64,000 nucleotides of DNA. Origin: Escherichia phage vB_Eco_J-01. The stretch lies in the sequence record PQ438393.1. One strand, 5' to 3'. The notes below the pieces were generated by a model. The model saw only the letters and a list, made by a program, of their open reading frames with translations, made no database searches and had not been told where the DNA came from. This document shows, piece by piece, positions 12,004 to 12,085 of the stretch (the stretch's first letter is position 1; each line of letters begins with the position of its first letter). Both the position numbers and the translations under genes were made by a program.

Positions 12004-12085
12004 CGATGGATCAAGGATTTGAACCTTGCTAGAACTTTCGTTCACGGATTAACAGTCCGTCGCCCAACCACTAGGCCAATCCATC
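12004..12085 (-). tRNA. tRNA with anticodon GUU (Asn-like) and a long type-II-like variable arm
   Basis: perfect acceptor gatggat/atccatc, anticodon arm ACGGA-CTGTTAA-TCCGT, about 15-nt variable arm, T-loop TTCAAAT, CCA encoded. Confidence 0.55.

Follow-up and report, generated by a model that had tools for sequence, protein, structure and literature searches.

Why should an asparagine tRNA carry a long variable arm? In bacteria such an arm is limited, according to textbooks, to tRNA-Leu, tRNA-Ser, tRNA-Tyr and tRNA-Sec. The 64,000-nt stretch of Escherichia phage vB_Eco_J-01 DNA analyzed here (sequence record PQ438393.1; hereafter the window, and J-01 for the phage) nevertheless contains an 85-nt minus-strand gene that combines the GUU anticodon of tRNA-Asn with a 15-nt variable region folded into a hairpin. 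Long-arm tRNA-Asn(GUU) genes of this kind are common in phages and almost absent from bacteria. The J-01 gene very probably encodes a functional asparagine tRNA derived from a class I tRNA-Asn by hairpin insertion, as judged from sequence comparison; the structure and distribution of the gene, the possible roles of its arm and the amino acid that it is likely to carry are considered in turn below.

A tRNA-Asn gene with a fifth helix

The Rfam tRNA model RF00005 matches the gene over its full length (12004-12085(-), 56.5 bits, E=9e-11, cut-off 29 bits), and the alignment to the model puts the surplus nucleotides into the variable region. On the minus strand the 5′ half of the gene reads GAUGGAU UG GCCU AGUGGUU GGGC G ACGGA CUGUUAA UCCGU and the 3′ half continues with GAACGAAAGUUC UAG CAAGG UUCAAAU CCUUG AUCCAUC G CCA; the hairpin of the variable region reads GAAC-GAAA-GUUC and is followed by UAG. 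Residues U8, A14, G18 G19, U33, G53, U54 U55 C56, A58 and C61 are all present, and the acceptor/T branch has the canonical 7 bp + 5 bp. The minimum free energy (MFE) fold, which is also the centroid fold, is a cloverleaf of five helices with -29.5 kcal/mol and z=-3.44, a stability that was reached by no sequence among 200 shuffles. A first-pass annotation of the locus had described a perfect 7-bp acceptor stem, an anticodon arm ACGGA/CUGUUAA/UCCGU and a variable region of about 15 nt with a GAAC/GUUC stem, leaving the strand unstated. Direct reading bears out the first two and places the gene on the minus strand, and the third is recovered by both Rfam and the MFE fold, with a GAAA cap. The same annotation had named a misread anticodon (GUA) and a canonical class I fold on re-analysis as outcomes that would overturn it. 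ARAGORN, Rfam and direct reading agree on GUU, which excludes a misreading, and the MFE and centroid folds keep the fifth helix, so that no canonical class I fold results. With 15 nt and a 4-bp stem, the variable region departs from class I architecture, in which the variable loop has 4-5 nt.

The same five helices all covary in an alignment of 20 distinct homologues representing the subfamily with a 15-nt variable region, in which 98.2% of cells are paired, compared with 69.9% in shuffles and 33-47% in slid-register controls. The extra stem is 98.8% paired, with both-sided changes in three of its four pairs and an invariant G:C as the first; the D-arm helix is 92.5% paired, with three of four pairs covarying, and the acceptor/T branch, including the T-stem helix, is 100% paired. 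Judged by fold stability and by pairing in the alignment, the structure is real and conserved and did not arise as a chance fold. Between J-01 and Klebsiella phage 05F01 the gene differs at 7 of 85 nt, five of them in the hairpin and one in its 3′ spacer, with stem pairing kept. Since compensatory changes are found in the stem, and six of the seven 05F01 differences fall in the variable region with pairing intact, the arm is under selection as a helix and not as a sequence.

The gene is widespread in phages. BLAST with the 85-nt sequence returned 392 phage records, 52 of them, all phi92-like, with an identity of 99% or more. More divergent genes of the long-arm type are carried by phAPEC8-like phages, an unclassified Stephanstirmvirinae Klebsiella phage, Vequintavirinae (Seunavirus and Henunavirus; rV5-like), Demerecviridae (T5-like and Novosibvirus) and T4-like Klebsiella and Aeromonas phages, and the 83-nt long-arm form of T5-like phages, used as a query in turn, returned 291 records. 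The long-arm tRNA-Asn spans at least four phage families. An IMG/VR pattern scan in which a long spacer had to follow the Asn anticodon stem-loop identified at least 120 viral loci; when class I spacers were also allowed, 13 of the 120 matches listed were long-armed (∼11%, or roughly one in eight), a share that refers to viral-contig tRNA-Asn genes with the same anticodon stem-loop. Across the species genomes of bacteria and archaea, 185,579 in all, the long-spacer pattern matched at 58 sites; just 21 of the sites proved to be genuine long-arm tRNA-Asn genes, of which 11 sit in arrays of 7-36 tRNAs per 8 kb. Among 5,426 E. coli genomes the J-01 gene has no match at E<=10, in host or prophage sequence, and a normal 76-nt tRNA-Asn is present in 5,425. 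The earlier view that an asparagine anticodon on a long-arm scaffold is unexpected therefore stands for cells and fails for phages, where the combination is common. In Micromonospora and Verrucosispora chromosomes (L140, L141, L150, L186) 89-90-nt long-arm tRNA-Asn genes lie among 23-36 tRNA genes per 8 kb, and these actinobacterial arrays may belong to prophages or mobile elements.

The best match overall to the J-01 gene is the class I tRNA-Asn of Kuttervirus, with 59 of 75 positions identical and just one gap, of 10 nt, which falls in the variable loop. The additional sequence in J-01 (ACGAAAGUUC, ∼12032-12041) lies between nt 45 and 46, and the T stem and the variable-loop flanks GA...UAG are identical in the two tRNAs. 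Nucleotides 28-43 are those of E. coli tRNA-Asn, a sequence confirmed in 5,425 genomes. The first-pass annotation had proposed covariance-model scoring against Tyr, Asn and class II tRNAs; profile hidden Markov models (HMMs) built from viral tRNAs place the whole molecule with class I tRNA-Asn (31.1 bits), ahead of tRNA-Tyr (18.8) and tRNA-Ser (16.2), and give it no clear isotype once the anticodon stem-loop is removed (Gln 11.4, Ser 10.2, Tyr 9.8). In a family member from an Erwinia phage, the D arm and anticodon arm are nearly those of E. coli tRNA-Asn. On these comparisons the J-01 gene reads as a class I Asn tRNA that has gained a hairpin between nt 45 and 46, and the site of insertion accounts for the three unpaired nucleotides (46-48) that follow the arm, a Tyr-like count.

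The anatomy of the family was compared on 101 unique long-arm Asn(GUU) sequences drawn from all loci; the acceptor-stem and body-profile comparisons cover 94 long-arm members. G73 is present in 98/101; the variable region has 11-19 nt (mode 15), with a stem mostly of 3-4 bp and usually 3-4 unpaired nucleotides 3′ of it, and the arm loop is of the GNRA type, mostly GAAA, in 56-65 of the 101, depending on the hairpin-calling method. Class I viral tRNA-Asn genes have variable loops of 4-6 nt. Viral tRNA-Tyr has A73 (65/65), a variable region of 10-18 nt, a stem mostly of 3 bp and usually three 3′ unpaired nucleotides; viral tRNA-Ser mostly has G73, with 14-26 nt, a stem mostly of 5-7 bp and usually one unpaired nucleotide (64/110); viral tRNA-Leu has A73 (93/93), 11-19 nt, 3-5 bp and usually one unpaired nucleotide. 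The J-01 arm, with 4 bp and three unpaired nucleotides, thus has Tyr-type geometry, unlike the Ser or Leu type. On body-only profiles Ser ranks first for 21 of the 94 long-arm bodies, Leu for 11 and Tyr for 10, with margins over other isotypes that are often small. Many relatives score best on the Cys profile, which probably reflects array-specific features common to the long-arm tRNA-Cys genes of the same arrays. Since some long-arm bodies score best on Ser, Tyr and Leu, the long-arm Asn class may have more than one origin.

Possible roles of the arm

Nucleases that target host tRNAs provide a candidate context for the arm. The AriB nuclease of the PARIS defense system cleaves E. coli tRNA-Asn at nt 40/41, and its site in the E. 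coli Lys and Thr(UGU) tRNAs is UAAUC/A, cut at the slash; substitution of U39 abolishes cleavage, and AriB also needs contacts beyond the anticodon arm, among them nt 16-17 of the D loop (PMC12409363). The T5 versions of the Lys, Thr and Asn tRNAs jointly neutralize PARIS (PMC12409363), and retron Eco7 targets tRNA-Tyr (PMC11555353). In J-01 the Thr(UGU), Asn(GUU), Tyr(GUA) and Lys(UUU) genes are consecutive at 11847-12260, with Thr, Asn and Lys within 414 bp, and in unrelated phage arrays, too, Asn is similarly linked to Lys, Tyr or Thr. Nucleotides 36-41 read UAACUC in the phage tRNA-Lys and UAAGCA in the phage tRNA-Thr, in place of UAAUCA in the host, so that both are substituted at U39. 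The same positions of the J-01 tRNA-Asn (UAAUCC) are unchanged from E. coli tRNA-Asn; an arm has been added instead, and it leaves the tRNA three nucleotides downstream of the AriB cut site.

The explanation that we favor, if only tentatively, is that the gene encodes a working phage Asn tRNA of a hairpin-insertion lineage in which the arm is a means of nuclease evasion. A short hairpin, usually GNRA-capped, would have been inserted at 45/46 of an Asn-type class I tRNA in what is now a widespread viral lineage. The arm would alter the form of the tRNA core where this borders on the 3′ strand of the anticodon stem, with the consequence that host tRNA-cleaving defense nucleases could no longer dock productively and the synthetase and ribosome would still accept the tRNA. 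PARIS AriB is the prime candidate for the nuclease evaded; a phage-encoded nuclease directed at host tRNAs is an alternative target. Taken by itself, a role of the arm in nuclease evasion is possible rather than probable.

Long arms are not confined to tRNA-Asn in viral arrays. They are found on Thr(UGU) in 11/73 genes, Cys in 8/57, Trp in 4/59, Glu in 4/65 and Lys(UUU) in 2/69, and at low frequency on Met; no long arm was detected among ∼140 parsed Arg genes or in Lys(CUU), Thr(GGU), Thr(CGU) or Gly(UCC). Other long-arm tRNAs make up 46 of 685 genes in arrays that contain a long-arm Asn, compared with 10 of 393 in arrays with class I Asn only (Fisher p=0.0025, without phylogenetic correction). 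This clustering, the frequency of long arms on Thr(UGU), the altered sites of the phage Lys and Thr tRNAs and the probable counter-defense gene pair upstream of the cluster fit evasion of nucleases through a changed shape, short of proving it. Expansion of the variable arm might conceivably be a general and previously unrecognized phage strategy for producing 'disguised' tRNAs, which we consider unlikely: a short stable hairpin beside the anticodon stem and D-arm surface would block the docking of defense tRNases, for instance the Toprim nucleases PARIS AriB and P2 OLD, and leave untouched the anticodon stem-loop on which synthetase and ribosome depend. Such a strategy would explain the arms on Asn(GUU), Thr(UGU) and occasional Lys(UUU) or other class I tRNAs, their co-occurrence within arrays and their near-absence from cells.

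A separate group of viral tRNAs with expanded variable regions has the anticodon UAU. Twelve of 21 unique tRNAs of this tRNA-Ile(UAU)-like type have variable regions of 21-26 nt, most with a CAGAU(A/U)A motif. UAU-anticodon allo-tRNAs have been reported as possibly non-translational (PMC5389517); the viral tRNAs parse with a 7/5 branch, which is an assumption of the parser, unlike the 8/4 or 9/3 branch of allo-tRNAs.

Several observations weigh against nuclease evasion as the function of the arm. The T5 tRNA-Asn that was tested against PARIS belongs to class I; its anticodon stem is mutated, and it lacks a long arm. The Kuttervirus tRNA-Asn has a host-identical anticodon stem-loop and lacks an arm, so an arm is not required wherever the stem-loop is unchanged; some long-arm members (L003, L006), for their part, also carry U39G. 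A strict either/or of arm and anticodon-stem substitution was rejected on these grounds, Kuttervirus having neither and L003 and L006 both. As to targets, tRNA-Asn is just a secondary one for AriB (PMC12409363), the main target tRNA-Lys(UUU) is rarely long-armed, and tRNA-Cys, which is no known target, often is. Asparagine codons account for 4.9% of codons in long open reading frames of the phage, with a bias to AAU, and codon supply alone could explain the carriage of an Asn tRNA, though not its arm. In addition, class IIb synthetases approach their tRNAs from the variable-loop side, as seen in structures of AspRS with its tRNA, and tolerance of the arm by asparaginyl-tRNA synthetase (AsnRS) is an assumption of the proposal.

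T5 tRNA-Asn was also considered, and rejected, as a proxy for the long-arm family, being a 78-nt class I tRNA with a mismatched anticodon stem. For the same reason, its membership of class I, neither the PARIS rescue data nor the note in the T5 record of no amber suppressor on anticodon swap applies to the long-arm family. The T5 gene (L015 8953-9030(-)) has U.U and G.A mismatches in the anticodon stem and UAAGUU at nt 36-41. T5-like phages hence depart from host tRNA-Asn in two ways, with the class I, mutated-stem form of T5 on the one hand and the 83-nt long-arm form with its host-like stem on the other. In the phage Bas34 (SelmaRatti), its own tRNA-Asn is not enough against PARIS.

The strongest competing explanation, which we regard as rather unlikely, accepts a functional Asn tRNA and gives its arm no role in defense, as an expansion that is tolerated or mildly stabilizing. 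In the stabilizing version the arm might, for example, stand in for the m7G46 triple or other tertiary contacts in a tRNA that is made fast and remains under-modified during infection, and the arm would spread and persist through recombination between phage tRNA arrays. The freedom of the arm to vary in sequence as long as pairing is kept is consistent with this, as are the Kuttervirus tRNA-Asn, armless with the same anticodon stem-loop, and the low-frequency long arms on Cys, Trp, Glu and Met tRNAs, which are not known to be linked to a nuclease. Stable tetraloops are likewise frequent in long-arm tRNAs from the same contigs (GNRA in 58/110 Ser and 35/93 Leu; mostly UUCG in Tyr), and the clustering of long arms by array is what a lineage-specific mutational tendency would produce. 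Given how constrained a tRNA molecule is, a neutral 10-nt insertion is, however, unlikely to have lasted in 101 distinct sequences from many unrelated phage families, the range of arm sizes is narrow, and the near-absence from cellular genomes points to a selective pressure specific to viruses.

It is considerably less probable that the tRNA acts as a decoy or competitive inhibitor that occupies tRNA-targeting nucleases, or has some other non-translational role. A host-identical anticodon stem-loop would make good bait, and the PARIS study suggests that viral tRNAs, when over-expressed, might compete with those of the host and so inhibit AriB (PMC12409363). A decoy, however, needs neither a correct discriminator nor an Asn-like acceptor-stem signature, and the elements used in translation are all conserved, namely the 7/5 branch, G18 G19, the UUCAAAU T loop, G53-C61, CCA, and G73 with GUU.

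Amino acid identity and parentage

Identity of tRNA-Asn in E. coli resides in the three anticodon bases and G73 (PMC9976931), and both elements are present in the J-01 tRNA. Charging with asparagine is by far the most likely outcome; given GUU, G73 and the host-identical anticodon stem-loop, the tRNA would be charged by host AsnRS and decode AAU and AAC. Acceptor stems of the long-arm family resemble those of class I Asn, with U1-A72 in 57/94 and C2-G71 in 40/94, whereas viral tRNA-Ser from the same contigs has G2-C71 in 103/111 and A3-U70 in 96/111. The J-01 acceptor stem begins with G1-C72, A2-U71 and U3-A70, followed by G73, and the Ser signature is G1-C72, G2-C71 and A3-U70.

Serine is the alternative that the arm itself brings to mind. 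Identity for seryl-tRNA synthetase (SerRS) depends on the long variable arm, G73 and the acceptor stem, and the enzyme does not read the anticodon (PMC9976931; PMC5389517); in E. coli it reads the tertiary shape of tRNA-Ser rather than specific nucleotides (PMC9976931). Arm and G73 together could then make the J-01 tRNA a SerRS substrate with dual or switched identity, by which AAU and AAC would partly be read as serine, a deliberate mistranslation or recoding like that of allo-tRNAs, nematode nev-tRNAs and Candida tRNA-Ser(CAG). The tRNA also has G1-C72 and C11-G24, and the phage's own tRNA-Ser(GCU) has an arm just one base pair longer, likewise capped by GAAA. The orientation of the extra arm matters for serine identity, and the arm of the long-arm family is Tyr-like, with 3-4 unpaired nucleotides on its 3′ side; the Ser type has 5-7 bp and one unpaired nucleotide, and the J-01 arm 4 bp and three. 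Its A2-U71 and U3-A70 also differ from the Ser-type pairs, and C2-G71, found in the 40 family members counted above, is a SerRS antideterminant in E. coli tRNA-Leu (PMC9976931). A proteome-wide substitution of serine for asparagine would be costly, asparagine being as frequent in the phage codons as stated above, and the strict keeping of a host-type Asn anticodon stem-loop with G73 fits AsnRS. We consider a serine identity very improbable. Charging by the tyrosyl and leucyl enzymes is opposed by G73, an antideterminant for both TyrRS and LeuRS (PMC9976931), and the J-01 tRNA lacks the GUA anticodon, the A73 and the homology of a tRNA-Tyr and shares its short-arm geometry.

The first-pass annotation had rightly noted a canonical class II tRNA-Tyr(GUA) beside the gene, which ARAGORN places 7 nt away, and had suggested that a duplicate of it changed its anticodon from GUA to GUU; adjacency, anticodons one base apart and Tyr-like arm geometry speak for such a descent, as do the long-arm Asn bodies from other contigs that score best on Tyr (10/94) or Ser (21), where a class II body may have been captured, but tRNA-Tyr ranks last in similarity among the other 15 tRNAs of the cluster (48/87 identical), differs in discriminator (G/A), acceptor stem, D arm, T arm and arm loop (GAAA/UUCG), and falls well behind class I Asn in the HMM scores, and the clean 10-nt indel relative to class I tRNA-Asn accounts fully for the gene, so that a Tyr-derived origin was rejected on pairwise identity and HMM scores and is scarcely credible for J-01.

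Genomic setting and relation to known systems

The region 10300-13200 has 99.2% identity with Escherichia phage JLBYU50 and 98% with phi92 (Justusliebigvirus, Stephanstirmvirinae). It includes a minus-strand tRNA cluster (10391-13136) of 16 ARAGORN genes, flanked on one side by large terminase and spanin genes and on the other by Nampt-family and phosphoribosyl pyrophosphate (PRPP)-synthetase-like genes. Features of the tRNA-Asn gene and of its neighbors are collected in the table, together with example loci for long arms on other isoacceptors.

Table. Positions of the J-01 tRNA-Asn gene, its structural elements and neighboring tRNA genes in the window, with example viral loci for other tRNAs with long variable regions
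Feature	Position	Strand	Details
tRNA-Asn(GUU) gene, 85 nt	12001..12085	minus	ARAGORN; Rfam; MFE cloverleaf; phi92 annotation PHI92_t008
Encoded 3′ CCA	12001-12003	minus	
Discriminator G73	12004	minus	
T arm CAAGG-UUCAAAU-CCUUG	12012..12028	minus	direct reading; stem identical to Kuttervirus class I tRNA-Asn
Variable region, 15 nt	12029..12043	minus	stem, tetraloop and 3 unpaired nt
Unpaired UAG, 3′ side of extra arm	12029-12031	minus	
Extra stem	GAAC 12040-12043 : GUUC 12032-12035	minus	GAAA tetraloop 12036-12039
Anticodon stem of tRNA-Asn	12056-12060 pairing with 12044-12048	minus	
Anticodon GUU	12051..12053	minus	within loop CUGUUAA 12049-12055; direct reading
D arm GCCU-AGUGGUU-GGGC	12062..12076	minus	4-bp stem, 7-nt loop, G18 G19; direct reading
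tRNA-Thr(UGU)	11847..11921	minus	ARAGORN; G39, compared with U39 in E. coli tRNA-Thr(UGU)
tRNA-Tyr(GUA), class II, A73	12093..12179	minus	ARAGORN; not parent of the Asn gene
tRNA-Lys(UUU)	12185..12260	minus	ARAGORN; C39 U40 C41, compared with E. coli U39 C40 A41
Example loci, long arms on other isoacceptors			L026, L071, L102 Thr UGU; L060, L062, L063 Cys GCA; L139, L156 Lys UUU
Example loci, tRNA-Ile(UAU)-like			L030, L033, L035, L037, L065, L134, L156, L206, L218

Other features of the cluster were observed in passing. A 126-nt spacer (12261-12386(-)) separates tRNA-Ser(GCU) from tRNA-Lys(UUU) in a tRNA block that is elsewhere tightly packed. A tRNA-like gene at 12805-12886(-), which scores 38.6 bits with the Rfam tRNA model (cut-off 29), is neither called by ARAGORN nor annotated in phi92; it has a UCU (Arg) anticodon, 4 nt in place of the D arm, a 23-nt variable region with a 4-bp hairpin capped by GUAA, and a fold z of only -1.87, and just upstream of it lies a near-consensus sigma-70 promoter (TTGACA-17-TATAGT, 12926-12898). 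Non-canonical T loops, in place of GGUUCRANYCC, are found in tRNA-Phe(GAA) (11033-11107(-), GGAUCGUUACC), which the phi92 record lists as a tRNA-Phe pseudogene, and in one tRNA-Met(CAU) (13061-13136(-), GGGAUUGUAACCC). The Nampt/NAPRTase-family gene (13883-15616(-)) and the PRPP-synthetase-like gene (15688-16581(-)) lie directly upstream of the tRNA cluster. We take this pair to resemble the NARP1 NAD+-reconstitution pathway of phages; it probably represents an NAD-reconstitution counter-defense, and the tRNA cluster would therefore adjoin a counter-defense locus.

The gene has already been annotated, as a plain 'tRNA-Asn', in phi92 and in many other phage records. Searches of the full-text literature outside subscription-only papers found no description of a long-arm tRNA-Asn or of variable-arm expansion in phage tRNAs, and the word 'variable' appears nowhere in the PARIS and OLD papers. 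A conserved class II-like tRNA-Asn has thus been labeled simply as 'tRNA-Asn' in well-studied coliphage groups (phi92-, phAPEC8-, rV5-, T5- and T4-like). Charging of the tRNA by AsnRS would mean that an extra arm is tolerated by a class IIb synthetase, with implications for the rules of tRNA identity and for the engineering of orthogonal or hairpin-tagged tRNAs. Should the arm block defense nucleases, it would represent a second route of evasion, by change of shape rather than of cleavage-site sequence, and would enlarge the present view of how phage tRNAs contend with tRNA-targeting immunity (PARIS, OLD, retrons, PrrC).

Among known tRNAs, the class I tRNA-Asn of E. coli (asnT/U/V/W) and Kuttervirus has GUU, G73 and nt 28-43 in common with the J-01 tRNA, which differs in its 15-nt variable region with a 4-bp hairpin (5 nt in class I), its lack of G46 and a first pair of G1-C72 rather than U1-A72. 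T5 tRNA-Asn has a mutated anticodon stem instead and is without an arm. The paired extra arm at 45/46 is a likeness to bacterial class II tRNAs, and its stem length and three 3′ unpaired nucleotides are of the Tyr type. Unlike Leu, Ser and Tyr tRNAs, however, the J-01 tRNA has a GUU anticodon, with G73 in place of the A73 of Tyr and Leu, and its D arm, with a 4-bp stem and a short 7-nt loop, is unlike that of class II tRNAs. It has no homology to the Tyr, Ser and Leu tRNAs of the phage itself beyond generic tRNA positions.

Like the phage tRNAs that evade PARIS, the J-01 tRNA-Asn is a phage copy of an isoacceptor cleaved by AriB and lies beside copies of Lys(UUU), Thr(UGU) and Tyr(GUA). The evading variants described to date owe their escape to base changes in or close to the cleavage site, or to high expression, whereas in the J-01 tRNA-Asn the site is unchanged and a helix has been added. 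A long arm combined with an anticodon normally found in class I is shared with allo-tRNAs, many of which also have G73 (Mukai et al., 2017; PMC5389517), and with the nev-tRNAs of nematodes, which are eukaryotic and derived from tRNA-Leu (Hamashima et al., cited in PMC5389517). Allo-tRNAs have an 8/4 or 9/3 branch, Sec-like D arms and Ser or Ala identity, in contrast to the 7/5 branch and Asn-type body seen here (PMC5389517). Because of this canonical 7/5 branch and Asn body, the J-01 tRNA is neither an allo-tRNA nor a nev-tRNA.

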